Part shown: positions 40,231 to 54,726 of the stretch, in pieces
How the letters are laid out: each line of letters starts with the position of its first letter
Numbering within the stretch: position 1 is the first letter of the stretch
DNA from: an uncultured Candidatus Poseidoniales archaeon
GTDB taxonomy: Archaea; Thermoplasmatota; Poseidoniia; Poseidoniales; Thalassarchaeaceae
Direction of reading: 5' to 3'
Length of the DNA stretch: 64,000 nt
NCBI GenBank assembly: GCA_902593945.1
Contig: CACJKA010000004.1
Location: forward strand, 13,434-77,433
Notes under the pieces: model-generated
Seen by the model: the letters and a program-made list of their open reading frames with translations, nothing else
Database searches by the model: none
Told to the model about the DNA's origin: nothing
Made by a program: the position numbers and the translations under genes

Positions 40231-43200
40231 CTAAAGATAGTTAAACTTCAAACAGTCAGTGATGCAAGTATCGGGATTCTCTAAAAAATCCGAGAAATGA
40301 AGCCTCGTCGTTTCGGCACAGTTTTCGAGAGCAATGGAAAAATCTCGCCTAAAATCAACGGGTTTCAGAGAACCTGCTCTTTTGGCCGCAAACTTCCTAC
40401 ATTTGGTATAACGCATATCTAAAGAACCATCTTTCTTATAATATTTGGAAGGTAGTTTCTCAGATTGTACTTCTAACTCATGAGCATTAGTATTATAGCG
40501 TCCCAAAAGGTCAATTAAATGTACATAAAAGATAGCTGCATAAACATCGTGATTTGCGATTTTCTCATGACTCCCAACTAATAACTTTAGGTCCTGAAAG
40601 TGTGTCTCTGTACTAGGAATGCCATATATCTCTGATAACCTCGCCATCCAATAAAATAATCGAATTTTCACAGGAAGAGGACTTTTAAGAGCAATTTTTC
40701 GTGCTTTCTGAATCAAATGTTCGCATTCATCTTTTTCGAGGGTATGGCTTTCGGAATCAGATCTCAATGAATGGTACTTCAAAGCAGCAGGCCACCAAAA
40801 TAGTTCCTCTTCTTCACCTTCTCCTGTGGCAAAATAATATTTTATATCTACAAATAAACGTTGATGTGCTTGCTCATACCACTTAGCATCATGCTGGGCA
40901 CAATCAATTGCGAACTCTCCGCCATAAATACAATGTCTTCTATTATCTCGCCGGTGTTTCCACTCAAACTTGGCCAAAACCTCATTGCTTTTCCATAGAG
41001 ACTCTCTCAATGAAGTATCTTTTAATCCTTGAAGCGCGAAAGAGGAGAAGAAAGTTCCTAAAATTGATAAATTCTTATTTGTCAAAGCACTCTTATCTTG
41101 TAAGATATTTTCCATGTCAGGAGGTGTTAATCTAGGATAATCAAAGATTCCACTTTCAGATAAAAGATTACTATCGGTATTAAAATCAAAGAAATTTTGT
41201 CTATTTGCAAAAATTAATCGCACTAAAGAAAGTTGATAACGTTCTGGACAAGTCTCGGGATTGAGCCAGTCTGGAGAGATTTGTTCGATAATCGGTGATA
41301 TATTCCCTCCTTGTTGTTCCGTTGCCCATCCTAATGTCAAGCACATATTTACACGGTCGCCATCAGTAGGTAATTGTTTCAACAATTCAGGGAGTTTTGG
41401 GACGGCCCAATTAGTAACCTGTTCAGCAATAATTCTTCCAGTATGTCTACTTTGCTCTTGCTCCATTAATTTGTTAAAACTAACCCAATCAATTGGTGAA
41501 AAGCGTTCACATGCGTGATGAATCATTCCGGAAATAATATGATTCATGTATGCATACACGTCTTTACTATCTAATCCGCACAATCGTTCTAAAAACGAAA
41601 TCGGTTTTTTACTAAGAAGTTCCGCTAACTTCGGGAAATCATTATTCAAGAAACTAAGATGTATTGGCAAAATCTTGATTGAATCATTTATTTTCTTTTC
41701 GATATTTTCTAGAGACTTTGGCAAGGAGTCATTGGTCATGAAACCCATGGCATCTGCGTATGGTAACCAAGGGTGATCCAACTTTCCAACGATTTCATGA
41801 CCTTTAATCCTAAATTTCCCTCGACCTCTTGCGGACACGTGGTCAAAGTAGTCATGCCCAATCATATTGAGGAAGCCCTTAGATGGATTCGCCCCTGTTT
41901 CTAACCATCCCCATTGTTCAGATATGGTACTTATTACACACTCAAAATCGTCATTTTTAATCGTATGTTGGCTAATATACTCAAAAAGGAGAGGTAAAGT
42001 GGCCTTCAAAACGGTTGCTGATGGAGATATATTTCCATCAGACATTTTTTCATCATCATCTAAATACTTGTCCGCCTCGAAAATAAAAGTGATCAACCTT
42101 GGCTCGGGAGCTTCGACTAGATTATTAAGCACTCGAATGTGTTCTCTTCCAAAATACTCCTGGTCCATCGCGTGAAAATCTGAAGCAATCTGTGTTGGAA
42201 ATATTTCCGGAGGAATTAATACCCAAATGTAAGCAAATTTTTTCGCATTTTTATTTCTAATTAGCACATTCGATTTGATTAATTCTTTTCCTACACCCGT
42301 CTCATCTCCAAGAAGTAACCATCGATTTGAGGGATGATGCGGTTTCTTCCAATCGTCCAAAAGATATCCCAATGCGAGGTCGTGAACAAGTCCACGAGCA
42401 GAATGAAACCAACAGAATCCAAAATTTTGATTCCTCAACGTTGCCTTTGGAGGCATGTAAATAGGGAAACTTCTAACATATGCAGCACCTTTCTCAGGTT
42501 TAATCCCTGAAGGAGGCCCCTCATCAACATAAGCCAAACACCAAGACCGAATATATTTGTAGGTAGTTGGCCATTTTGATTCCTTGTCTTTTATGTCAAA
42601 CACAATCTTGAAACCTAATTTTCGGGAGACATTTTCCATTGCTTTGATAAAATCAGGCTCAGAGTGCCATTCATTAACCAATCCAACTAAACTCATTGGG
42701 AGTTTTTGAAGGTCAATATCTCCCTTTTCATCCATAATTGCGCCCCTAACCTGCTCTTCAATTTGTTGCAATTTCTTTTGACAGGAAATGACTAAAGGAA
42801 TTGGTAAATCTTCCCGTAGGGGGAGGGAAGGAATGCCAGTTGAGATGTGATTTGGTAATATGCGTCCACCATCATCGTATGTGTACGAATCAAATCGAAT
42901 ACTATTTCCCACAACAAGAGTTCCATCAATATTCGTGCTATCGCTTTTTTTTATCACAAATTGCGGAAATCCGGGGGAGACTCCCCAGTATACATTTGTG
43001 CGCTCATGCGTGATAACGCCTGCTCGAAAAGATTGTTCTGCGGGCGACTCCTTATCAATTGATTCCGACCATGCTAGAAATATTTCTGCAAGAGAATAAA
43101 ATTTATCCTTCGGAGAATTGAGTGTGATTCGAAACATTTCTGCAAGTTTTGTTAAAGGCCAAGATAAATATCCACCTATCTTACCATTCGGCTTAACCTT

Positions 43201-43956
43201 CAATTTTTCTAATAGCGATGGTGTAAAGTATCTAAATAATAACTTTTTTTTCCCATCTTTGTTCGACCACTTGAATAGAGAAGTGGGATCAATCAAGATT
43301 GATTCGAACCTTTCATGTAGAGCATCTTTTTCTGATTGGGTCATTTCTACATCTTCTTCAGCCTTTACCTTCTTTTTTGGCCCAGAAGTTCTTGTTTGTT
43401 GTTGCTGTGGCTTCTGTTGCTGTGGCTCCTGTTGCTGTTGCTCTTTTGGTACAGGCTTTTGGGTTGCCAGCCATTCATCAAAGGGTTGCTTATTCCCCTC
43501 TTTCAGTTTATCAAATATTTCCGGTGGAATCTGCGTTTTTCGCCCGACTTTTTTGTTCTTCTCATTTATTGCATTCCTGGCAGTCTCAGGGAGACGGTCT
43601 CTTGACCTTCTCCTTGCCTTTCTCTTCATCACACCTCCGGCGGCTTTCAGATCCTCAACGGATAGGCTGGATTCCTCGATGGGAGTCGGTGGGGGCGTTT
43701 TTTCCTCCACTTCGATTATTATCCAGTATTGTTCGTCCCGACGATTGCTCATCCCAAACTCCCTCCAGCGAATTTGAAAGTTGATTTGCGTCGTTTTAAT
43801 AGCCTCGAGCCATTTACTCCTGACTTTTTTCCCAAATGAAAAAACTTTTGTATCAATCTCAATATTATCATGATCGAATGTTAACCTATTGTTTTCTAAA
43901 TCCAATTCAATTAAATCGGGGGAGATATTCTCAAAACTCCACTTTATTGCCGCCAC
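40231..43956 (-). CDS. 1241-aa orphan protein (GTG start) with a basic/Q-rich disordered linker and no recognisable catalytic domain
   Basis: Uninterrupted 3.7-kb ORF, the longest in the window. Residues ~90-210 are low complexity (KRKARRRSRDR; QQQQEPQQQKPQQQQ; KKKVKAEED). A DUF3800-like RWLLLGDETG element lies mid-protein, but the resemblance is weak. The plus-strand ORFs at 43118-43784 are antisense shadows. Confidence 0.7.
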   Translation of the reverse strand: MAAIKWSFENISPDLIELDLENNRLTFDHDNIEIDTKVFSFGKKVRSKWLEAIKTTQINFQIRWREFGMSNRRDEQYWIIIEVEEKTPPPTPIEESSLSVEDLKAAGGVMKRKARRRSRDRLPETARNAINEKNKKVGRKTQIPPEIFDKLKEGNKQPFDEWLATQKPVPKEQQQQEPQQQKPQQQQTRTSGPKKKVKAEEDVEMTQSEKDALHERFESILIDPTSLFKWSNKDGKKKLLFRYFTPSLLEKLKVKPNGKIGGYLSWPLTKLAEMFRITLNSPKDKFYSLAEIFLAWSESIDKESPAEQSFRAGVITHERTNVYWGVSPGFPQFVIKKSDSTNIDGTLVVGNSIRFDSYTYDDGGRILPNHISTGIPSLPLREDLPIPLVISCQKKLQQIEEQVRGAIMDEKGDIDLQKLPMSLVGLVNEWHSEPDFIKAMENVSRKLGFKIVFDIKDKESKWPTTYKYIRSWCLAYVDEGPPSGIKPEKGAAYVRSFPIYMPPKATLRNQNFGFCWFHSARGLVHDLALGYLLDDWKKPHHPSNRWLLLGDETGVGKELIKSNVLIRNKNAKKFAYIWVLIPPEIFPTQIASDFHAMDQEYFGREHIRVLNNLVEAPEPRLITFIFEADKYLDDDEKMSDGNISPSATVLKATLPLLFEYISQHTIKNDDFECVISTISEQWGWLETGANPSKGFLNMIGHDYFDHVSARGRGKFRIKGHEIVGKLDHPWLPYADAMGFMTNDSLPKSLENIEKKINDSIKILPIHLSFLNNDFPKLAELLSKKPISFLERLCGLDSKDVYAYMNHIISGMIHHACERFSPIDWVSFNKLMEQEQSRHTGRIIAEQVTNWAVPKLPELLKQLPTDGDRVNMCLTLGWATEQQGGNISPIIEQISPDWLNPETCPERYQLSLVRLIFANRQNFFDFNTDSNLLSESGIFDYPRLTPPDMENILQDKSALTNKNLSILGTFFSSFALQGLKDTSLRESLWKSNEVLAKFEWKHRRDNRRHCIYGGEFAIDCAQHDAKWYEQAHQRLFVDIKYYFATGEGEEEELFWWPAALKYHSLRSDSESHTLEKDECEHLIQKARKIALKSPLPVKIRLFYWMARLSEIYGIPSTETHFQDLKLLVGSHEKIANHDVYAAIFYVHLIDLLGRYNTNAHELEVQSEKLPSKYYKKDGSLDMRYTKCRKFAAKRAGSLKPVDFRRDFSIALENCAETTRLHFSDFLENPDTCITDCLKFNYL

Positions 43957-44224
43957 GAGAGTTGCTATTTCCAGTTACTTATCAAATACTCTACTAATTC
44001 ACTATGATTTTCAAGATGAACGCATCAAATGGTTGCAGGACTTTGATATTCAAAAGAGGTTTGATCGACTTGATTGCAACTTATGCGCAACTAGTTATGG
44101 CCTTTGATGAGACGAACAAATAGCAGATTTGAGAAAGCGAAAACGTCTGAATAACTAAGATCAAATTCATAATTGTACAAATGCCAGGGCATCCATTGTT
44201 GGTATCGAGTTAATCAATTCTTAC

Positions 44225-44253
44225 TTTATATACAGATAGTATATTGATTAGTC
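44225..44253 (+). promoter_or_regulatory. island promoter copy 1: TATA box TTTATATA 21 nt upstream of the ATG (leaderless)
   Basis: ctTTTATATAcagatagtatattgattagtcATG. TATA at 44225-44232 and ATG at 44254. Confidence 0.55.
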
Positions 44254-44832
44254 ATGCCAGAAAAAATTAGGATGAATAACCCACGAAGAAACCTTTTGCA
44301 ATTATTACGTAAGAGTGTACCAGCCGGTACTTATCACGTAGATCGTGATGCTCTACGTAAAGCTAGAGCAAAAGTGCCCAAGGGAGAATACCATGTAGAT
44401 CGTGATGCTCTACGTAAAGCTAGAGCAAAAGTGCCCAAGGGAGAATATCATTCTAAACATGCGAAGGAAATTTTCTTTCTACACGATATAAGGGAAATTA
44501 AGTATGCCAACCGAGAGGGCTATATTTATGCTAATGAAAAATTCATAGATCCCGACGGTAGAGAATATGAATTACACTACTATACGAATTATGATGGAAC
44601 CAATGCTAATGCATATTGTATATCTAATCCTTGGGACAGTGCAAATCGTTCTGCTGGAACAGATTATTTCTCTTCTCATATTGATGACGATGGATTTCTA
44701 TGTCTTGCTGAAAATTCATGTAGGTCAACCAAGGAATCTCCTTATGGTCTAGAATATGCAATTTTGAGAGCAAGGTTTTGGGCAGTTGGATTTTCAAGTT
44801 TTATGGAAACAGGCACTTTCCCAAATGCTTAG
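44254..44832 (+). CDS. E2 (UBC)-like small protein, paralog 1, with N-terminal 19-aa tandem duplication
   Basis: The C-terminal core YELHYYTNYDGTNANAYCISNPW...SSHIDDDGFLCLAEN...ILRARFWAVGFSSFMETGTFPN is shared with 44844..45242 and 49087..49851. H-x3-DGFLCL resembles the UBC HPN...G-x-I-C-L active-site region. Confidence 0.5.
   Translation: MPEKIRMNNPRRNLLQLLRKSVPAGTYHVDRDALRKARAKVPKGEYHVDRDALRKARAKVPKGEYHSKHAKEIFFLHDIREIKYANREGYIYANEKFIDPDGREYELHYYTNYDGTNANAYCISNPWDSANRSAGTDYFSSHIDDDGFLCLAENSCRSTKESPYGLEYAILRARFWAVGFSSFMETGTFPNA
44332..44445 (+). repeat. in-frame tandem duplication, 2 x 57 nt
   Basis: Units 44332-44388 and 44389-44445 differ only at two synonymous positions (tat/tac, cac/cat). 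They encode YHVDRDALRKARAKVPKGE twice. Confidence 0.9.
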
Positions 44833-44843
44833 AGGTGATTATT

Positions 44844-45242
44844 TTGACTGAAAAATCAATTTCTGATAAAATTATGGATTGTATAAACCCTCATGCTCTG
44901 AAAGGCAGAGAAGGAAATAATGCAGTATATATCGAAGATGTATGGGATTGTCAGGAGGACGCCCGAATATACAGGATTGAATATGTGTCTACATTAGATG
45001 GGAGGCATGCTATAGCTTACTGTCGTTCCAATCCCTGGAACCGAACAGAGGTAAATTGTGGGTATTCATTTTCATCAGGGCACGTTCATAGCGATGGATT
45101 CATTTGTATAGGCGGCAATTCAGGCTATAGCAGAAATGCTTCCGAATCTAATTTAGATCTAAATACTGTTGTTGAGAGGGCAAGGTTTTGGTGTCTCGCA
45201 TTTAGTGTACTAAAAGAAACAGGTAATTTTCCACAACCATAG
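44844..45242 (+). CDS. E2 (UBC)-like small protein, paralog 2
   Basis: YRIEYVSTLDGRHAIAYCRSNPW...SSGHVHSDGFICIGGN...VVERARFWCLAFSVLKETGNFPQP. The start is set at the TTG at 44844, 5 nt after the SD-like AGAGGTGA (44831-44838). The track start at 44778 lies inside the previous gene. The ATG at 44874 is an alternative. Confidence 0.5.
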   Translation: MTEKSISDKIMDCINPHALKGREGNNAVYIEDVWDCQEDARIYRIEYVSTLDGRHAIAYCRSNPWNRTEVNCGYSFSSGHVHSDGFICIGGNSGYSRNASESNLDLNTVVERARFWCLAFSVLKETGNFPQP

Positions 45243-45247
45243 GAGAG

Positions 45248-46210
45248 ATGAATATGTCAAAAAATAGCGAAAAAAACAACAAACGAAGAGATATAATAAA
45301 GATTGACCACAATTTGAGTAAATTCAAGAATCGAGTATTCGTCAGAAGATATCCTGCTGGTGATAGATCTGATTTGGAAATGTGTTTCAGCCCCAAAGCG
45401 CTCAAAAGATGCCTCGAAACAGTTGGTTCAAAAAGACCTGAAACTGGGGCAAAAGGTTTCTCTGCAGTAATTTCTGATAATCCGGACGAGAATACAGTAA
45501 GAATTGGCTTCGATATCATAGAATATGATAAGATTGGTTCCCAAAATGCAAGCGGTGTAATGTATAGTCCAAATTTGGAGTGGAGTACTCAAAGGGTCAA
45601 TTACCATATGGGTGCCAAAGATGGTCGTTTTTGGGTAGGGGATATTCATAGTCATCCCGGCTATAGTGGCAAGCCATCGGGCGATTACGGAGATGGTAGA
45701 GGTGATTTGGGATATGTAAGAAAAATCTTTGAAACTTATCCATTCCCATTAGATTTTTTTCTTTTACCTATAATTACTCTTGAAGATGGAAAAATTATAA
45801 TTCATCCTTGGATAATCGACAGGAAAAACCCCACCAAACCTCTACTCGCTAAAGTAAGAGTTTGTGATCCTTCTAACTTCCCTGTAGTGGAACTATCTGA
45901 TACGGTGGCTAATCTAGCCCCAACTATTGACGGAATGTATGATTTATTTAACGACCAATCAGATAGAATAGATGAACTCGAAAAGATGATTGAAGAACTT
46001 CAGAAGTTGGTAAATGATAAACTCTCAAAGCAGCTCGAGTCTAGACTTGCTGAAGAGAGGGATATGAAGAAAGATCTAGCGGAGAAGGCTGAATACGATA
46101 CCCGAACTGAGGCATCTGTTCCCAAAGAAGAGTTTGCTGAACGGGAAGAAAAAGAGTCAAGCGATTCGCGCTCGGACTATCAATGGGCATTTGCAGCTTT
46201 GGAGGTATAA
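45248..46210 (+). CDS. JAB/MPN+ (JAMM) metalloprotease with long acidic coiled-coil tail
   Basis: Upstream Glu in KRPETGAKGF and JAMM core GDIHSHPGYSGKPSGDYGD (HxH-x7-S-x-D). SD-like AGGAGAG precedes the start. The C-terminal 100 aa are E/K-rich coiled coil. Confidence 0.7.
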   Translation: MNMSKNSEKNNKRRDIIKIDHNLSKFKNRVFVRRYPAGDRSDLEMCFSPKALKRCLETVGSKRPETGAKGFSAVISDNPDENTVRIGFDIIEYDKIGSQNASGVMYSPNLEWSTQRVNYHMGAKDGRFWVGDIHSHPGYSGKPSGDYGDGRGDLGYVRKIFETYPFPLDFFLLPIITLEDGKIIIHPWIIDRKNPTKPLLAKVRVCDPSNFPVVELSDTVANLAPTIDGMYDLFNDQSDRIDELEKMIEELQKLVNDKLSKQLESRLAEERDMKKDLAEKAEYDTRTEASVPKEEFAEREEKESSDSRSDYQWAFAALEV

Positions 46211-46212
46211 GA

Positions 46213-47121
46213 ATGACTAGGAAAGATGTACCAGATAGTGAAAAATATGAATGTTACAGATCTCGACTCAATGGGGTAATATCTACTTCGTTTTCGAAAA
46301 AACGCATATTAGTTATTGGAACAGGTGCCGGTTCAATAATGTGTATTAATTTAGCTCGGCAAATGCCTGCAAAATTGACTTTAGTGGATTTTGATGAGGT
46401 AGAATTGCATAACCTCAGCCGAACCGCGTTCGGTTACAGCGATATAGGGAAAAAGAAAGTCAACGCACTTAAAGAAAGGATATTAGATGCAAACCCTTTC
46501 ATTTCTGTAGAATGTGTCGATTATGATGTTACAAGCTTAGATAATAAGAAAATGGATTTTCTATTTGATGTTGATATGATTATTGCAGGCACAGACTCTG
46601 CTAAAGCACAGCGTTTCATTAACGAAAAATCACTTCACTACCAAGTCCCGGCTATTTTTATTGGGATTCATCAACGAGGAAGAGGTGGCAGAATTACATT
46701 TGTAGAGCCAGGACAGGCTTGCTATAGATGTATTAGGCCTGATAGATATGAAGAAGATTTGGAACAAGAACTAGATCTTAATGGAGAGACTGGAAGTCTT
46801 TCGTCGTGTCAATTAATTGATAATTTAGCAATGGATATCCTGATTTCATTTTTGGAAAAGAATGAAAATTCCGAATTTGGAGGTAAATGGGATTTAACAT
46901 ACAAAAACAGTAATGATTTTGAAATTCAATTATCCCATATGTCAGAATTAGAAGCTACTTTTGATGTGATACATGATAGTGCCCAGCACGTAGACCAAAA
47001 TCACCGCCAAGAATTAGATAAATTATTTGCAGGTCCACGTATCATTACTTATCAAGAACCTAAAAAAGAAGACTGTCCGTGCTGTTCTTCTGTTGAAATG
47101 GAAAATCTCTTATTGAGATAA
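46213..47121 (+). CDS. ThiF/MoeB/E1-like adenylyltransferase
   Basis: Rossmann loop ILVIGTGAGSIMC, LVDFDEVELHNLSRTAF (Arg finger), DIGKKKVNALKERILDANP and IAGTDSAKAQRFIN. Two Cys pairs, CYRC and CPCC, form a Zn-site-like pattern. The start is set at the ATG at 46213 after GGAGGT. The track start at 46183 overlaps the JAB gene. Confidence 0.8.
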   Translation: MTRKDVPDSEKYECYRSRLNGVISTSFSKKRILVIGTGAGSIMCINLARQMPAKLTLVDFDEVELHNLSRTAFGYSDIGKKKVNALKERILDANPFISVECVDYDVTSLDNKKMDFLFDVDMIIAGTDSAKAQRFINEKSLHYQVPAIFIGIHQRGRGGRITFVEPGQACYRCIRPDRYEEDLEQELDLNGETGSLSSCQLIDNLAMDILISFLEKNENSEFGGKWDLTYKNSNDFEIQLSHMSELEATFDVIHDSAQHVDQNHRQELDKLFAGPRIITYQEPKKEDCPCCSSVEMENLLLR

Positions 47122-47136
47122 TATCTAATTAATTTC

Positions 47137-47165
47137 TTTATATACAGTTAGTAATATGTATAGGT
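47137..47165 (+). promoter_or_regulatory. island promoter copy 2: TTTATATA 21 nt upstream of an ATG
   Basis: aatttcTTTATATAcagttagtaatatgtataggtATG. 19 of 24 positions between the TATA and the ATG are identical to copy 4. Confidence 0.55.
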
Positions 47166-47231
47166 ATGACTACGCAAATTAATGCTATAATGACTCTAGA
47201 AGAAGTAACTACAATGGAGGAAGAGCAATGA
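47166..47231 (+). CDS. 21-codon leaderless mini-ORF (speculative)
   Basis: The ATG sits at the predicted transcription start of promoter copy 2. It encodes MTTQINAIMTLEEVTTMEEEQ. Its stop overlaps the next start (caATGa at 47228-47231). Confidence 0.25.
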   Translation: MTTQINAIMTLEEVTTMEEEQ

Positions 47232-47671
47232 ATAATAAGAATGAAATCCCACAGGAATTAATGGATGAAAAGCTAGCAGAGATAAGTATAACTACGAGTC
47301 TTCTGAACACACCAGAGACCGATATGAGATTCGGTATCAAGGGTACGTTTAATCTGTTTTCGACTGGTATGAAGGCTAATTATGGAATACCCGATTTAGA
47401 AATGCGCGGTATTCCTGGAATGCTAATAAATTCCGCTGCTCAGACCATTAATGAAATAAATGCCTGCAGATTAATTCCCGATCAACTAATTCTTGTGAAT
47501 CAGAAAATAACTTGGACACACGGTGACATACTAACAGAACAAGGAGACGATTGGGATGGCGGAGTGAAGTGGAAAGCGGAAGATATGATTCGCCTGACCA
47601 GTGCTCAAACCACAATAGACCAGACCACTTGTGAATGCTGTGAATCCAAAAGGGCAGGAATTGATGAATAA
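47228..47671 (+). CDS. hypothetical protein, DUF4262-like
   Basis: FSTGMKANYGIPDLEMRGIPGMLINSAAQTINEIN resembles the DUF4262 pattern (Y.vGl...g.PEl...GlP......ll). C-terminal CECC and an acidic end ...AGIDE. Confidence 0.35.
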   Translation: MNNKNEIPQELMDEKLAEISITTSLLNTPETDMRFGIKGTFNLFSTGMKANYGIPDLEMRGIPGMLINSAAQTINEINACRLIPDQLILVNQKITWTHGDILTEQGDDWDGGVKWKAEDMIRLTSAQTTIDQTTCECCESKRAGIDE

Positions 47672-47687
47672 TCTAGAAAATTATTTC

Positions 47688-47716
47688 TTTATATAGAGTT
47701 GAATGGAAGTATTGTT
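47688..47716 (+). promoter_or_regulatory. island promoter copy 3: TTTATATA 21 nt upstream of the ATG
   Basis: ttatttcTTTATATAgagttgaatggaagtattgttATG. The spacing argues for the ATG at 47717 rather than the TTG at 47699. Confidence 0.55.
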
Positions 47717-49084
47717 ATGTTTACAGAAGAAGAATTAACGGAGTTTGAAGAGGAAGGAAGCTTGCTTATCGAAAGAATGGAATTGCAATCGGACTTCAAT
47801 CCACAAATTACTGACTTATTGATAGAAAAATCAGAAGATTTGCCAGGAATAATAGAAGTTTTCATCGACTCCCGTGTTGACTATGGAGGTAATAACACGA
47901 TACTTTCTGACATAATTCAAGGACCAGAGTATGAGTTTGCTGGAGACTGTAGAAGGGTATTACTGATTTCTTGCGACCTAACTGAAATAGGTGAAGAATT
48001 GATCGATATGGATTTATTAACAGGAAATAGAGTTTCTAAAAGTGAAACGATTAATCACACGATCGCATTACCGGAAGTTGATGAAATAACAGATTTAAAA
48101 AAGATTAACAAAAGTATTGCTAAATCAGATTTTGAAAGAATTATTCTAAACCCAAAACAAATCAAAGATTGCCTTGGAAAGAAAATAATCGGTCAAAAAC
48201 AACCTGTTCGAGTGATAGCTAATACATTATCTTCTCATATTGCCAAAACAGCACCTTCGCGCCCCTTAGTATTCTTTGCATTAGGGCCTACAGGCGTTGG
48301 AAAAACTCGAACCACAGAAGTAATTCCTAGTATTATCAAGGAACTCGAAGAGGGCCTGTCAGTTGGCCATTTAAGATTTGATATGAATGAATTCAAAGAA
48401 AATCATAGGGTCAGTCAGATTCTTGGCGCCCCCCCTGGTTATGTAGGTTATAGCCCGAAATCCATAGTTTCGGACGTTGTCGAGTCAAATGATATCACCG
48501 TCCTCGTATTTGATGAAATAGAAAAAGCCCACCCTGACTTCCTTCAGGTTTTGATGAATGCGATTGATACAGGAAGGCTGTCTACCGGTTCCGGAACAGT
48601 TAATCTTCGTAAATCAATAATTATGTTCACGTCTAATATTGGAGTAAATGAAGGTGTTAATTGGACCCAAGAAAATGCGGAGGAAACAGATCAGTTCGAA
48701 ATTAATCAGCATTGTCGTGGCCTACTTATCGAGCAAGGTGTCCCGATAGAGATAGTCGGCCGAGTCCAAGATTTCTTACTATACGGGACTTTAACTCAGA
48801 AACATAGAGCCGAAATTCTCGTACAATCAATTCAGGAGTATCTAGCTGAGTTTGAATTAAATGTACAGCATATAGATCCTGATTTGATTATTAATTTTCT
48901 TAATTCCAAAGGATTATCATCGCCGTTTGGTGGCAGGCAATATCGAGCGGCAATAGGCGAATCTTTACAGCCAGAAATAAATAATTTCTTCTCTCAAAAT
49001 CCGTCTTATAGAGGTCCTATATTTATTGATGTATCCGGTACTATTTCAATATCTCAACCGCTAGGGCAATCGGAGGAGGAATAA
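47717..49084 (+). CDS. single-module ClpA/ClpB-D2-type AAA+ ATPase with an acidic N-terminal domain of unknown fold
   Basis: IIGQKQPVRVIANTL...RPLVFFALGPTGVGKTRTTEV (Walker A), RFDMNEFKENHRVSQILGAPPGYVGY, VLVFDEIEKAHPDFLQVLMNAIDTGRLS (Walker B / sensor region) and IIMFTSNIG. No second AAA module or middle domain. Confidence 0.8.
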   Translation: MFTEEELTEFEEEGSLLIERMELQSDFNPQITDLLIEKSEDLPGIIEVFIDSRVDYGGNNTILSDIIQGPEYEFAGDCRRVLLISCDLTEIGEELIDMDLLTGNRVSKSETINHTIALPEVDEITDLKKINKSIAKSDFERIILNPKQIKDCLGKKIIGQKQPVRVIANTLSSHIAKTAPSRPLVFFALGPTGVGKTRTTEVIPSIIKELEEGLSVGHLRFDMNEFKENHRVSQILGAPPGYVGYSPKSIVSDVVESNDITVLVFDEIEKAHPDFLQVLMNAIDTGRLSTGSGTVNLRKSIIMFTSNIGVNEGVNWTQENAEETDQFEINQHCRGLLIEQGVPIEIVGRVQDFLLYGTLTQKHRAEILVQSIQEYLAEFELNVQHIDPDLIINFLNSKGLSSPFGGRQYRAAIGESLQPEINNFFSQNPSYRGPIFIDVSGTISISQPLGQSEEE

Positions 49085-49086
49085 AA

Positions 49087-49851
49087 ATGTCTCAAATAAA
49101 ATCTAAGAAACCGAATTATAAATTCCCATGTAAGGCAGTTAGAAGATACCGTAATTCCGGCGGTCTTGGTAAATTTAAAATGATGAGTAAAAGAAAAGTA
49201 TCCTTTTCTGAGAAATATTCTCTTAATGGTACTAATTATACGATCGAAATAATCAGTACTGGTTTCGGCGACAAAGCTATTTCCACAATAACTAATCCGA
49301 ATATCAAGGCCAACGAAAAAGGAATTAATGAAGACGGCATTATAATTTTAGATTTCGATACCTTGACTCCTAATTTGAAAAATTCAACTACGGATATTAT
49401 CGATACCTGGTATAGGGCACGATTTTGGTGTTGGGCTAGAGAAAACAACTGTGACGTAAACTCTCGGGCCGCTTGGACATTTTTCAAAAATAGCGACCCA
49501 TCAGGACAGGAGGGTAATAATTGGTCATATGAAAAATCCCAAAGGTTTGAGAAATTTTACGAAGATATAAACGTGGGAGGGTATTATTTAACCATAACAT
49601 ATGTATCTACTGAATGCGGCGAATATTCTCTTTCCTATTGCCGCGATGGTCTCGATTATATTGACGACGGAGTAAATAGTGAAGACGGCCATTTATTTCG
49701 TTCCGGGACTATTTGTTTAGGTTATTCTAGTGGTGGAAACAGTGGGGTTTATGATTCAGGTCAGCCACTAGAATGGGTAATACCACGATCCAGATATTGG
49801 GCAGTTGCATTTGCTTATTGGTGCGAATATGGCAATTGGATGGATCCTTGA
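49087..49851 (+). CDS. tandem E2-like protein: N-terminal Cys-less (UEV-like) copy plus C-terminal Cys-containing copy
   Basis: N-half: YTIEIISTGFGDKAISTITNP...INEDGIIILDF...TWYRARFWCWAREN. C-half: YLTITYVSTECGEYSLSYC...GHLFRSGTICLGYS...IPRSRYWAVAFAYWCEYGNWMDP. Both halves align with the 44254 and 44844 cores. Confidence 0.5.
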   Translation: MSQIKSKKPNYKFPCKAVRRYRNSGGLGKFKMMSKRKVSFSEKYSLNGTNYTIEIISTGFGDKAISTITNPNIKANEKGINEDGIIILDFDTLTPNLKNSTTDIIDTWYRARFWCWARENNCDVNSRAAWTFFKNSDPSGQEGNNWSYEKSQRFEKFYEDINVGGYYLTITYVSTECGEYSLSYCRDGLDYIDDGVNSEDGHLFRSGTICLGYSSGGNSGVYDSGQPLEWVIPRSRYWAVAFAYWCEYGNWMDP

Positions 49852-49912
49852 TTGCAAAAAGAAGATTCATAAAGGACATCCTGCTAGCCTGTAATGGATT
49901 CATCCCTCGCGA

Positions 49913-50953
49913 ATGCGCGATTATGAATGCCAACACGAGCCCCTTAACCGGGGAGTATATACTAGCGAAAGCCAGAAATCACATTACTGCGAGCAATGTG
50001 GTTCAACCGAAACCCCAGAAAGAAATGAAATAAGAGGTGAAATTTTCTGCCCTACTTGTGGTATGATTTCTGTTGAGAAACTGTATGATGAACTTAATCC
50101 AAAAACTCATGCAAATACTAATGATAATAACTCTGGGAGAGGCACTCTCGGCCCTTCAAAACCATTCGGAATAAAAGATCATACGGGGGCGGCAATCTCG
50201 TCAAAACATAGGAAGAAATGGGCACGTTTGAATAAAATTAACACAACTATCCACAGGGATGCTGAAGATAGTAATAAGGTAGTCGAAGAGAGCATCGAAC
50301 AATTGAAAAAACTCAATTATACACTGAGTAAAAGTAAAGAGAAAGAGTATCGTAAATTATTGATGGACACATTGAAAACCAAGGAGGGAGATAACCTGTT
50401 TAAGACGGGCACTCAATACAATGCTATTGCTTGTGCATTGGTTCTACATTCCGATATTGATAGAAGGATGTTTTTCGAAATGTTAAGAGATTATGCGAAA
50501 GCGAATAATTTGGATAAAAGAGCGAAAAAGAGTATAAGAAGAAGAGGTTTGCAAATCAGAGGAATTTTGAATAGTAAATTGGGCAACCATTCTAATCAAC
50601 GAGCCCCAGTATATCCCCATATAATAGATGTTAATAGCAGACCTAGTGAAATCCATGAAGCTTTTATCGCGCAGTGGTGGGGGAAGAAGATAGGTGCCAT
50701 TAGGACGTATTCGGAACCTCCAAAGTATCATGTAATTATCAAATTAATTAATACAATTTTAGACAAACCAGAGATATTAGAATTAAAAGGTGGTGAGATG
50801 CTAGAACCTATTTTAGATGCTTGCTTACTAATATCTATGACTCATAATTGTCCTTCAAGGACATCAGGTAATGTTACGGAAAAACTCTCATTGACAGCTA
50901 AGTCAAGAAACTATAGTGTCCGCTTGAAGACTTTCTTGGATCAAGATTGTTGA
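49913..50953 (+). CDS. TFB/TFIIB-like transcription factor paralog
   Basis: N-terminal zinc ribbon CEQCGSTETPERNEIRGEIFCPTCGMI (TFB pattern CPECGS...D..GE.VC..CG.V) and a linker resembling the B-reader/linker region (KDHTGAAISSKHRKKWARLNKINTTIH). 346 aa with a helical C-terminal region of cyclin-fold size. Confidence 0.55.
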   Translation: MRDYECQHEPLNRGVYTSESQKSHYCEQCGSTETPERNEIRGEIFCPTCGMISVEKLYDELNPKTHANTNDNNSGRGTLGPSKPFGIKDHTGAAISSKHRKKWARLNKINTTIHRDAEDSNKVVEESIEQLKKLNYTLSKSKEKEYRKLLMDTLKTKEGDNLFKTGTQYNAIACALVLHSDIDRRMFFEMLRDYAKANNLDKRAKKSIRRRGLQIRGILNSKLGNHSNQRAPVYPHIIDVNSRPSEIHEAFIAQWWGKKIGAIRTYSEPPKYHVIIKLINTILDKPEILELKGGEMLEPILDACLLISMTHNCPSRTSGNVTEKLSLTAKSRNYSVRLKTFLDQDC

Positions 50954-50957
50954 TTTC

Positions 50958-50986
50958 TTTATATACGGTTAGGGAGATGTATAGGC
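50958..50986 (+). promoter_or_regulatory. island promoter copy 4: TTTATATA 21 nt upstream of the ATG
   Basis: tgatttcTTTATATAcggttagggagatgtataggcATG. Confidence 0.55.
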
Positions 50987-52276
50987 ATGTCAGCCAAAAT
51001 TGATAGTAGTGTAAAACCAGAAGATGCAGTAACTTGCCCAGATTGTGGGGCCGAATTCGATATAGCAGATCGTTTACGATCACATATTGAGTCCAGTATT
51101 AGAATAGAAATGGCACAAAAATATGAAGAAGAACGTGAGAATGACTTAGCTATCCACAACGCAGAAATTGAAAAACAACGTGCCCAGATCAATGATCTCC
51201 GCAAAGCTAAGATTGATTTTGATAACTTATTGGCAGAACAGGATATTGCCATTCAAGAGGCTAAGGCTCAGGGGGCCATAGATAAGGCCAAGGAAATGTC
51301 TTCCGAACTCAACATACTCCGTCAAACCAAAATAGATCATGATAACTTATTGGCAGAACAGGATATTGCCATTCAAGAGGCTAAGGCCCAAGGTGCTAGA
51401 GAAGCAATGAAATTAGCTAATCAAGGACTTGAAGAAAAGGTGTCCCAAAGAGCAAAAGAAATAACTTCAGAAAAAGATTTAGAGATTAGTAGACTTGAAC
51501 TCGAAGCAACGAGAAAGAACGAGATTATAGAAAGACTTCAACAACAGTCAAAGTCTGGCGAACTAGAGGGAGAAGTGCTTGAGTTAGCGGTCGAAAATCA
51601 ACTCCGAAACTTACATCCAAGAGACAATATTAAGGAAGTCAAGCGTGGAAATTATGGTGCAGATATTGAACAGTCTGTGCTGACGAATACTGGCAGTATT
51701 GCAGGAAAGATACTCTGGGAATGCAAGAAACATAAGAAATGGCAAAACTCCTGGCTTAATACAATTAGAAAAAACGCATTAGAATTCAATGCAGATACAA
51801 TGGTTATAGTCACCACCACTATGCCAAAAGGGATGGAAACATTCGGTAAAATAGATGATGTATTTATCTGTAAATATTCTGAAGTTCCAGTAGTTTCTCA
51901 GCTACTGAATCATGCAGTGTTGAAAGCTCATCGAGATAATCAAAGAGGAGAACACATGATGTCAATCCATGAGAGAGTATCAGAATATATCAGCGGTCCA
52001 GAATTCGCTATGTTGATGCGTGTTGTGATTAAGGCATACGAGGACTTTGAGGATGATCTAAGAAAAGAGGAGCAGTATATGAAGACTAGATGGAAATCCC
52101 GTCGTATCTATCTAAGTGAAGTGATAGACTCACTTTCTTCACTGGCTGGAAAATTAGAATATCTAGGGGCAGGCCATTTTGAAGTAATGCAAGAAATAGG
52201 AAGTCAAGTTCCTCCTGCGTTGCCCGAACCTGTAATAATAGAGGATATCGAAATAGAGGAGGTTGAAGAGGAATGA
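50987..52276 (+). CDS. DUF2130-like protein: zinc ribbon, coiled coil and PD-(D/E)xK-like C-terminal domain
   Basis: N-terminal CPDCGAEFD, a long coiled coil with an internal duplication, and a C-terminal GADIEQSV...GKILWECKKHKKWQNSWLNTIRKNALEFNADTMVIVTT, as in DUF2130 (G.D....ilwE.K....W...W..KL......a...vlV). Ends in EEVEEE. Confidence 0.6.
   Translation: MSAKIDSSVKPEDAVTCPDCGAEFDIADRLRSHIESSIRIEMAQKYEEERENDLAIHNAEIEKQRAQINDLRKAKIDFDNLLAEQDIAIQEAKAQGAIDKAKEMSSELNILRQTKIDHDNLLAEQDIAIQEAKAQGAREAMKLANQGLEEKVSQRAKEITSEKDLEISRLELEATRKNEIIERLQQQSKSGELEGEVLELAVENQLRNLHPRDNIKEVKRGNYGADIEQSVLTNTGSIAGKILWECKKHKKWQNSWLNTIRKNALEFNADTMVIVTTTMPKGMETFGKIDDVFICKYSEVPVVSQLLNHAVLKAHRDNQRGEHMMSIHERVSEYISGPEFAMLMRVVIKAYEDFEDDLRKEEQYMKTRWKSRRIYLSEVIDSLSSLAGKLEYLGAGHFEVMQEIGSQVPPALPEPVIIEDIEIEEVEEE
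51221..51387 (+). repeat. in-frame internal duplication, period 120 nt
   Basis: The 47-nt stretch gataacttattggcagaacaggatattgccattcaagaggctaaggc occurs identically at 51221-51267 and 51341-51387. It encodes DNLLAEQDIAIQEAKAQGA twice. Confidence 0.9.
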
Positions 52277-52473
52277 AAACCATAATGAGTAGTATGACAC
52301 AAAGTGTATACGCCAAGAAAAGAAAGAACGGTGGTAAGCCCCGAACTTTTATCGGCGGTATACGAATGAACTACTCTAAGTATAAAGATTAAAGACAGAA
52401 AGTTTGGCGGTATACCAATTTAATATATTCTCTCTGGACAAAAACCTCATTTGTAACACCCAAATCACAGAAC

Positions 52474-53694
52474 GTGGCTAAAGTCCCCTTGTTAGAAGGC
52501 GAAGAAATCATTTCTTCAGTCAAACTACCTAAAGAAAAAACAACTCTGATGCTGACGAATGATGGATGGATCGTAATTCCAGTAGTGCACAGTATTCCAA
52601 ATATTAGTAATCTTAGTCGACTATTTCACGTTAATAGTATAAAAAAAATCGAGATGGGTTACCATCCATGGCGAGACCAAGTTTATTCCAATATTATTAA
52701 TTTATTATGTATTAGTTCTATTTTTTATGCATGTTACATATATGTTGGTACTTTTGGGCCTACAAATCTTTTTACTTCTCAAGAATTTTTCGATGCGTGG
52801 ATGGATTATCAACCAATTACTGATAAGATTTTTCTACATCTTTTTTTGCTACCCCTTATGTTAATCATTATTCAGCGCTTCATGATCGGCAAAGAGGAAT
52901 TGCACATAGATTATATCGACAAAGATTCCGCAATATCATCTATCGCTGTGAGTCATCCTCACCGAAGCATACTGACCGCTCTAATATCTATATTCGTCAT
53001 TTATGGTATTGGCTTTTGGATTTTTGCAGAATCGATATTTTCACTTCGCATGACTCACATTCTCGTCATTGGCGCCCTCATTATAATAACTTCAAATGGA
53101 AGGAAGATTTTAGAAGAAATTTTATTTTGGAGACCTAAAAAACGATTTTTTGTCAGAGACTCCGTATATCAAACAAGCAACATTGTAAACTTCTATAAAA
53201 AAATAAATATTTTTTTACCAATACATGAACGTGATGGGAAACAAATCATCGACAGATCCCAAACGGATTTTGTTAAATCATTACCTCCTGAATTTCATAA
53301 ATTAAGAAAGAGAGTCGAAGCTCATGATGCTATTCTATCCCAAATTGTGGAAGATTACAATTATATTTTCAATTCTTCTAAAGCCTTTGTAGGTGGTTCA
53401 ATAGTGAGAACCAGTACAGAAAAACTGTTGAGCTTTAGAGTTAAGAAAATATTACCAAAAGCACAAAAAAATAAAAACTTATCTGATTTCAGAAATCTTC
53501 TAAATAAGCATGATGACTCTTTGACAGATAATATCCTAAGAGATATAGATCAGATAAGCGTTTTAGGAAATAACGCGACACACAACATGCAATCATCAAC
53601 TTCAGATTTTATGAGTATATTAGAAAAATTTGTCAATGTTGTTGAATGGCATATATCTAATCCTCCTGTTAGCATTATCGAGCGTGAGGATTAG
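52474..53694 (+). CDS. membrane protein: N-terminal bPH-like domain, TM helices and a C-terminal DUF4145-like domain
   Basis: LLEGEEIISSVKL...LMLTNDGWIV (bacterial PH-like), about 4 hydrophobic helices (residues ~70-210), and a C-terminal ...LRDIDQISVLGNNATHN typical of DUF4145 (..ir..GN.a.H). GTG start. Confidence 0.5.
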   Translation: MAKVPLLEGEEIISSVKLPKEKTTLMLTNDGWIVIPVVHSIPNISNLSRLFHVNSIKKIEMGYHPWRDQVYSNIINLLCISSIFYACYIYVGTFGPTNLFTSQEFFDAWMDYQPITDKIFLHLFLLPLMLIIIQRFMIGKEELHIDYIDKDSAISSIAVSHPHRSILTALISIFVIYGIGFWIFAESIFSLRMTHILVIGALIIITSNGRKILEEILFWRPKKRFFVRDSVYQTSNIVNFYKKINIFLPIHERDGKQIIDRSQTDFVKSLPPEFHKLRKRVEAHDAILSQIVEDYNYIFNSSKAFVGGSIVRTSTEKLLSFRVKKILPKAQKNKNLSDFRNLLNKHDDSLTDNILRDIDQISVLGNNATHNMQSSTSDFMSILEKFVNVVEWHISNPPVSIIERED

Positions 53695-53700
53695 GACAAC

Positions 53701-54726
53701 ATGACATATTGGTCAATTCCTTTGACAGGTATTCGTGGCAAGAGACCAAGAAATGCAGAATGGAAGAATGCATATAAACACGATACTAGAATAATAGTGG
53801 ATGGGGATTGTCCTAGTGTAATCAATTTACCTGATTTCCCTGGGATGTCTTTATGCCATTATGAATACAATGGGGAGGATTTAACCTCTAAGTTCCAAGG
53901 TAATTATGATTTCAATTATTTATTACCACACCTTCCAACTACATATTGTGAAATAATTATTGATGATTCCGAATGGAAGTGGCCCTTTATGCCAGACTAT
54001 CCTAGGCATAACGAAGATCAAAAACTACAGACAATAATGACGGCTAGTTCGACATTAGTTGCATCATTAAGATTGATTGGATTTAATCAATTCATCACCC
54101 CCTGTATTTTGAAAAATGCTACGTTGTCAACAGCCGTAAACAGTGATGAGAAAAGTATAGAATTTATACCAACAAATGCATTTTTATTCCCGACACCACT
54201 TTTAGAAGTAACAAAAGCCAGAATCTCCAAATCGGATTTTGAGTGGGTATGTAAGTCTCATATCACACTTCATCAAATGTCTTACACCGTAGATATAACA
54301 CCTGCAATGTCTGCTATGAGATATTACTATCAAGATATGCCAACAAGAGCTAGAATGACGATTATTTGGGCTGCAATTGAAGATTTGTTAAAACCTAAAG
54401 GTGATAAAATTCGATTTGGTATACGCGCCAGAGGTGCTATGTTATTAGGGCGAACCGATGAAGAAGTTGAGATATTGTTCAAACAAATTGGTAACCTCTA
54501 TGGAAAACGTTCAGCGGCAACCCATGGTCGAAGATTTACATATATGCAGGGCCTTGAACCAAATCTTAGTGATAATAGACTAAAGACAGATATTAGGGCT
54601 TTAATGACTTCATACCAGCTTCTTTGCGAGCTATTAATAAAAATCATTGATAGAGGTTCATTATTTAATGAATTAGAATTGCAGGAACTGGAAGAATCTT
54701 ATTCGGAAAAATTCCCATCAGAATGA
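53701..54726 (+). CDS. HEPN-like (Apea-type) protein
   Basis: C-terminal IWAAIEDLL...RARGAMLLG...LFKQIGNLYGKRSAATHGRRF contains the Rx4H HEPN motif in an Apea-like context (lY..RS...HG). It lies 6 nt downstream of the previous gene. Confidence 0.45.
   Translation: MTYWSIPLTGIRGKRPRNAEWKNAYKHDTRIIVDGDCPSVINLPDFPGMSLCHYEYNGEDLTSKFQGNYDFNYLLPHLPTTYCEIIIDDSEWKWPFMPDYPRHNEDQKLQTIMTASSTLVASLRLIGFNQFITPCILKNATLSTAVNSDEKSIEFIPTNAFLFPTPLLEVTKARISKSDFEWVCKSHITLHQMSYTVDITPAMSAMRYYYQDMPTRARMTIIWAAIEDLLKPKGDKIRFGIRARGAMLLGRTDEEVEILFKQIGNLYGKRSAATHGRRFTYMQGLEPNLSDNRLKTDIRALMTSYQLLCELLIKIIDRGSLFNELELQELEESYSEKFPSE

Follow-up and report, generated by a model that had tools for sequence, protein, structure and literature searches.

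A pseudo-E2-like domain fused to an intact E2-like domain in a rare conjugation-type operon of Poseidoniales

The 254-aa product of one gene in an uncultured Candidatus Poseidoniales archaeon consists, by sequence comparison, of two homologous minimal E2-like domains in tandem, the second intact and the first lacking both the Cys and the His of the family. The DNA analysed, called the window here, is a 64,000-nucleotide stretch of contig CACJKA010000004.1 (assembly GCA_902593945.1). The protein, E2c, is the third E2-like protein of a rare conjugation-type operon, and we consider it fairly probable that its C-terminal domain is charged on Cys210 while its N-terminal domain serves as a non-catalytic adaptor. 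A sequence-only reading of this DNA had proposed that E2c is a covalently fused pair of a Cys-less E2 fold (UEV) and an active E2, an unusual prokaryotic analog of the eukaryotic pairs formed by Mms2 and Uev1a. E2c is a real prokaryotic pseudo-enzyme fused to its enzyme; the reading as a UEV-E2 pair is partly supported, in its architecture, and what we say of the function of its two domains is drawn by analogy.

The gene and its subdivisions are listed in Table 1 together with the operon. The open reading frame and every peptide quoted in the sequence-only reading are present. E2c starts at an ATG 2 nt beyond the stop codon of the AAA+ gene, and a Shine-Dalgarno-like GGAGGAGG falls within the final AAA+ codons (window 49069-49089), 6-13 nt 5' of that ATG; this short gap and motif suggest translational coupling of the two genes. 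The protein begins with a tail whose motif, with C15 inside it, is invariant among tandem forms and has no counterpart in the other paralogues, and for which the full-length AlphaFold model predicts a short helix and the first strand. The dead core that follows has three to four strands, a loop in which DGIIIL replaces the DGF[IL]CL of the family, and a helix with the family signature R-A-R-F-W-C. The linker and helix alpha-1 are kept in tandem and 150-aa single-domain forms alike. In the intact domain four strands lead into a loop that carries H202 and C210, and a long helix closes the C-terminus; the domain retains the nearly invariant family residues C185, H202, G207, C210, R234 and W238.

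Table 1. Positions in the window of the E2c gene, its parts and the other operon genes
Feature	Position	Strand	Size or remark	Basis
E2a, intact E2-like paralogue	44254..44832	+	N-terminal basic repeats	
E2b, intact single-domain E2-like paralogue	44778..45242	+		
JAB/MPN-like protein	45248..46210	+	320 aa, HSHP motif	all matches weak
ThiF-type E1-like adenylyltransferase	46183..47121	+	312 aa	Pfam ThiF 5e-32
p147, orphan between E1 and AAA+	47228-47671	+	147 aa	no family match
ClpB-D2-like AAA+ ATPase	47699..49084	+	461 aa	AAA_2 4e-28
E2c gene, pseudo-E2-like then intact E2-like domain	49087..49851	+	254 aa	
E2c N-terminal tail	49087..49191	+	residues 1-35, motif FPCKAxRRYxNxGGxGKF	
Dead E2-like domain core	49192..49452	+	residues 36-122	homology, alignment, model
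Ile68 codon	49288..49290	+	position of the family's first invariant Cys	alignment A7
Gly79 codon	49321..49323	+	position of the family's invariant His	alignment A7
Ile87 codon	49345..49347	+	at the family's invariant active-site-position Cys	alignment A7
Linker and helix alpha-1 of second domain	49453..49497	+	residues 123-137 (DVNSRAAWTFFKNSD)	
Intact E2-like domain	49498..49848	+	residues 138-254	alignments, AlphaFold model
His202 codon	49690..49692	+	8 residues upstream of Cys210	
Cys210 codon	49714..49716	+	predicted thioester-forming residue	

Profile and pairwise comparisons agree that the small domain occurs twice in E2c. BLASTP matches the N-terminal half to E2b (p154) at E 6e-6 and to its own C-terminal half at 1e-3, and the C-terminal half to E2b at E 1e-17. 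When a profile of three N-domain sequences was compared with a family profile made without the E2c (p254) clade, hhalign returned 96.3% probability (E 1.6e-9 over 87 columns). As a control, the real N-core scored 23.7 bits against a family HMM likewise made without that clade, and the best of 5000 shuffles scored 9.2 bits. Over the whole genome, which is 65% complete, the family HMM finds exactly four domains, namely E2b, E2a and the C- and N-terminal halves of E2c, the last being the fourth match at E 2.5e-6. The same HMM matches the N-terminal half of every tandem homologue (i-E 1e-5 to 1e-7). In a MAFFT alignment built from cut N-cores (A7), the N-domain aligns to the same domain along its whole length and shares the family's E42, G61, A64, G84, R110, R112, W114 and E119. 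It is strongly diverged (23-30% identity, with a branch of 4.0 changes per column). The sequence-only reading had allowed that its two halves might turn out not to be homologous folds; the hhalign result and alignment A7 speak for homology. A giant repeat protein, P0012 (5347 aa), also gave a weak match to E2c residues 48-86 (E 8e-6), at about 998-1036 and in nine further stretches, which is probably a compositional or chance resemblance to a beta-hairpin repeat.

Ile68, Gly79 and Ile87 of the N-terminal half stand where the C-terminal half has C185, H202 and C210. This bears out what had been read by eye, that the second copy keeps the His and Cys positions and that the first has Ile at the Cys and no His. 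Conservation of the Cys or Ile among homologues had been put forward as a check, and Ile occupies the Cys position in all nine tandem loci (the window, L016, L018, L002, L022, L020, L015, L019 and L021), with no homologue restoring an aligned Cys. These loci represent three sequence types, 52-61% identical in the N-terminal half, all of which read G-[IH]-I-I-L-D-F; Ile68 of the window is Val in the other tandem forms. H202 and C210 are invariant in an alignment of 14 family sequences and, at 90% or more, nearly so in another of 20 sequences, and both are kept in the bacterial members, with no Pro-Asn after the His. Intact members of the family carry two invariant cysteines. Every intact member also ends 5-7 residues past an invariant Glu-x-Gly (..ETGxFPxP, ..EYGNWMDP), which gives the C-terminus a constant length; this could be structural, or could reflect a processed tail.

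The family is rare, with 13 matches at E <=1e-3 among 1.84 billion representative proteins and seven matches among 5.8 billion clusters. The domain had been called island-specific, which does not hold, as one MAG of Planctomycetaceae and one of Enterobacterales contain intact members. A separate dead E2 gene as a general theme of the family was considered and rejected; both Planctomycete paralogues keep Cys and His.

The case that the family is an E2 is reasonable but not proven, and is based on a moderate AlphaFold model, weak CBASS-E2 matches and gene context. The model of the C-terminal half has helices at residues 127-136 and 228-248 and strands at 146-149, 152-161, 164-174 and 181-187, with a loop before the second helix (pLDDT 70-85), and its core topology of alpha-1, four-strand antiparallel sheet, Cys loop and crossover alpha-2 fits an E2. 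Foldseek against the PDB placed about 30 UFC1 entries at probability 0.84-0.99, but with E 7e-3, TM 0.41 and 11-13% identity; CBASS CdnG-E2 (probability 0.63) and the Vps23 UEV (0.13) were weaker matches. No HMMs other than CBASS E2 models touch the E2-like domain. The PADLOC CBASS-E2 HMM matches residues 198-254 of E2c at E 2e-4, and two PADLOC CBASS E2 models are matched by 4/14 and 2/14 family members, all below threshold (E 2e-4 to 3e-3). Scans of E2c and 14 family members gave no Pfam (UQ_con, Prok-E2_A-E) or NCBIfam match, and profile searches of PDB sequences gave no real match, returning a chance resemblance to an immunoglobulin 'YYC' region only.

For the N-domain, homology and an alignment-dependent model point to an E2 fold without the catalytic Cys. 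In the full-length AlphaFold model both halves consist of strands, a loop and a long helix, with the preceding alpha-1 in the C-terminal half; residues 2-104 fall short of pLDDT 50, and the pTM is 0.57. Modelled with the family alignment, the N-domain reaches pLDDT 79.5, and in Foldseek it comes closest, over the whole domain, to the UEV-like domain of VPS37A (TMq 0.51, probability 0.75, E 0.58). This model is not independent evidence, because its input alignment already assumes homology, and Foldseek on the N-domain model alone gave nothing significant. Neither the UEV nor the UQ_con model of Pfam matches the N-domain, which is most closely related to the E2-like paralogues of its own operon. 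Judged by these similarities, the dead domain derives from the local prokaryotic E2-like family and stands outside the UEV clade.

The operon runs E2a, E2b, JAB, E1, (p147), ClpB-like AAA+ and E2c, followed by a TFB-like gene, all tightly packed on the plus strand; the true start of E2b is probably a TTG at 44844. Its E1 is closest to CBASS Cap2-type E1 models (PADLOC, E 2e-23). In every locus seen the AAA+ gene lies directly upstream of E2c. E1, JAB and AAA_2 ATPase genes are adjacent in the window, in six syntenic archaeal loci and in five further tandem loci, and the operon includes a ThiF E1 in the window, in 11 other archaeal loci and in two bacterial loci. The bacterial loci (Planctomycetaceae MAG L024, 5974-11009; Enterobacterales MAG L026, 6001-10353) encode, next to the E2-like genes, a 577-597-aa E1-domain protein followed by a ClpB-like ATPase; a weak JAB match of the E1 protein is seen in L024 only, which also has two adjacent intact E2-like genes. 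In the archaeal locus L019 (about 1266-2888) JAB and E1 share one 611-aa open frame, as in the bacterial fusions, and in the window they are two overlapping genes. The orphan p147 occurs only in the window and L018 (88% identical) and is absent from L003-L008 and L019-L021; a link between it and the dead domain was rejected, since L019-L021 are tandem loci without it.

No gene for a ubiquitin-like protein (Ubl) was found in or beside the operon in at least 12 archaeal and two bacterial loci, nor were poly-Ubl or zinc-finger genes among the ORFs and Pfam matches of the operon or related loci. A 95-aa ORF before E2c in locus L015 was considered as a Ubl and rejected, being the split C-terminus of the AAA+ protein. 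The gene content suggests a conserved Ubl-less E2-JAB-E1-ClpB system common to bacteria and archaea. Besides the operon itself, the island includes DUF2130, a TFB paralogue and a HEPN-like gene. When window 40231-54726 was compared with 301 species genomes of the order, E2c was present in one, the window's own genome, and yet metagenomic contigs carry the island at the same chromosomal site, adjoining PPS_PS and QRPTase genes. This pattern suggests a rare accessory island whose role is probably defence.

In its commonest form the island has no tandem. There a 150-aa single-domain E2c directly follows the AAA+ gene (L001 1460-1912; L003 9982-10434; L004-L008), with no room upstream for a lost ORF; this form is represented by 24 contigs for one neighbouring protein. 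The 150-aa proteins open with '..RARFRNWA.NNCD...AAWIFFKNSDPS', a stretch made up of the dead domain's final helix and the linker. In E1 and AAA+ trees rooted on bacterial relatives, the tandem operons L019, L021, L020 and L002 are basal, and the tandem pair of the window and L018 is sister to the single-domain clade (support 97/100 and 100/100 in the E1 and AAA+ trees). The tandem form is thus ancestral in the Poseidoniales island and one lineage deleted the dead sheet and loop. The trees and protein ends together place the dead domain in the island ancestor, with a single later deletion that left its last helix only. Because that sister lineage dropped the dead domain and kept the rest of the operon, the domain is not indispensable. 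Across tandem forms it has nevertheless been maintained by purifying selection, as dN/dS is 0.14-0.20 for the N-domain (0.04-0.15 for the C-domain) and 67 alignment columns of the N-terminal half are invariant among forms about 60% identical overall. The domain tree is silent on the source paralogue of the dead copy because both clades sit on very long branches (4.0 changes per column for the N-clade, 2.9 for the C-clade).

Conservation bears directly on one rival explanation, that the N-terminal half is a functionless duplication relic or a beta-rich extension of unrelated origin with a chance resemblance to the domain. Such a view is encouraged by the great divergence of the N-half (23-30% identity and the branch of 4.0), its deletion in the commonest island form and the absence of a significant Foldseek match for it, but the shuffle control and profile statistics exclude chance, dN/dS of 0.14-0.20 speaks against drift, and the 67 invariant columns include the tail motif that is unique to the N-domain, so that we regard it as very unlikely. 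A second rival has better standing, and we still hold it improbable: that the family is some other Cys/His domain working with the E1, such as a sulfur-relay or acyl-transfer module, or one whose own C-terminal tail is activated, with the N-half as its dead copy. The UFC1 entries that top Foldseek (probability up to 0.99), with CBASS E2 and UEV structures also among the matches, argue against this, as do the weak HMM matches, which all fall on CBASS E2 models, the His-x7-Cys spacing and order of secondary structure, which suit an E2 core, and the similarity of the E1 to CBASS Cap2-type models (E 2e-23). On its side are the absence of any curated E2 profile or PDB sequence match, two invariant cysteines instead of one, the C-terminus of fixed length with its Glu-x-Gly five residues before the end, and the missing Ubl.

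The fused UEV-E2 pair of the sequence-only reading, taken strictly, is the remaining rival: the dead domain orients an acceptor Ubl and the active domain builds one chain linkage, as in Mms2/Ubc13. Here the part of the claim that survives is the architecture, a Cys- and His-less copy joined to an intact one; the dead domain is outside the UEV family, and with no Ubl in the operon or related loci there is nothing for a UEV to orient. A dead E2 fold next to a live one, selection on the dead domain, a UEV-like domain (VPS37A) as its best whole-domain neighbour, at probability 0.75 but E 0.58, and a JAB protein in the operon that could process or remove a modifier would all suit strict equivalence. 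Against it are the lack of a Ubl gene in at least 12 archaeal and two bacterial loci, a full-length model with no confident interface (pLDDT <50 over residues 2-104) and the loss of the dead domain in one lineage with the operon otherwise unchanged. We give it a small chance.

We therefore return to E2c as an enzyme with a built-in adaptor. In this proposal the operon's E1 would activate a carboxyl group and the C-domain of E2c would accept it on Cys210. The dead domain would act, by analogy with UEV and RWD domains, as a non-catalytic E2-fold adaptor within the same chain and may hold a partner beside the active domain, whether a modifier, a substrate or target, the E1 or the AAA+ ATPase. Because one lineage manages without it, the role of the dead domain is more likely to adjust specificity or coupling than to make catalysis possible. 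A bolder version is that E2c is a single-chain prokaryotic UEV-E2 (or RWD-E2) equivalent in a Ubl-less E2-JAB-E1-ClpB system, whose dead domain and tail (FPCKAxRRY, Cys15) select or position a modifier or target. This we find rather doubtful; if true, the dead domain might even relay the modifier or target, which would make E2c an E2/E3-like hybrid that passes its output to the neighbouring AAA+ unfoldase.

The classical example of an E2 with a UEV partner, in two chains, is Ubc13-Mms2. Like E2c, Ubc13-Mms2/Uev1a pairs an active E2 fold with a Cys-less one, but it consists of two polypeptides and E2c of one chain, and the dead domain of E2c comes from a local prokaryotic family, in an operon without a known Ubl modifier. 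The single-chain arrangement is known from UBE2Q1 and UBE2Q2, which join an N-terminal RWD and a C-terminal UBC domain and whose N-terminal domain has been suggested to aid substrate recognition (bioRxiv 10.1101/2023.03.05.531151). The order is the same as in E2c, a non-catalytic E2-superfamily domain and then a catalytic one; UBE2Q, however, is eukaryotic and of independent origin and has the complete UBC core, including the HPN motif and the C-terminal helices, whereas each E2c domain is a minimal core with alpha-2 as its last helix. Among prokaryotes, inactive RWD-like E2 domains were predicted in 2006 by Iyer, Burroughs and Aravind in bacterial polyUbl/JAB/E1 operons (class 6e; PMC1779556). 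These too are Cys-less E2 folds alongside E1-like and JAB proteins and were predicted to bind rather than catalyse, but the class 6e operons encode poly-ubiquitin-like and zinc-finger proteins and show no fusion of the inactive domain with an active E2, whereas the E2c operon has no Ubl and combines three E2-like genes with a ClpB-like AAA+ ATPase.

Two further systems are close to the operon or to the fold. The E1 of the operon is nearest to the Cap2-type models of CBASS type II (Cap2/Cap3, and a stand-alone CBASS E2 in CdnG-E2, PDB 8hsb), and CBASS also does without a separate Ubl, as the C-terminus of its cyclase is conjugated. The E2c operon, unlike CBASS, has no CD-NTase or CBASS-type effector, keeps E1 and E2 separate, has several E2 genes and includes an AAA+ protein. 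UFC1, the minimal E2 for UFM1 and the best structural neighbour, also has a minimal core that lacks the canonical C-terminal helices. Its match to the model is a marginal one (TM 0.41), and it differs in carrying TAK where HPN would stand and in having a known Ubl and E1 (UBA5). E2c shares the principle of a pseudo-E2 with an E2 with Ubc13-Mms2, UBE2Q and class 6e and belongs to none of these families, because its dead domain arose from the local E2-like family. As for the unusual prokaryotic analog of the sequence-only reading, a prokaryotic pseudo-enzyme fused to its enzyme is indeed what we find, and the novelty is tempered by class 6e and by UBE2Q1/2. Our literature searches found no description of the E2-like family, the tandem form, the E2-JAB-E1-ClpB operon or E2-like proteins in Poseidoniales.

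The pairing of E2s with UEV and RWD pseudo-enzymes is held to be a refinement that eukaryotes brought to ubiquitin signalling. E2c would mean that an accessory island of an archaeon has reached the same solution independently, through internal divergence of a minimal E2-like domain. The sister lineage without the dead domain is a natural control, which offers a 254-aa and a 150-aa protein as a pair for what a dead E2 adds. The analysis also delimits a rare E2-like family, of 13 clusters among 1.84 billion representative proteins and with none in Pfam. The Ubl-less E2-JAB-E1-ClpB gene set, present in bacteria and archaea, is probably a more important lead than E2c itself.
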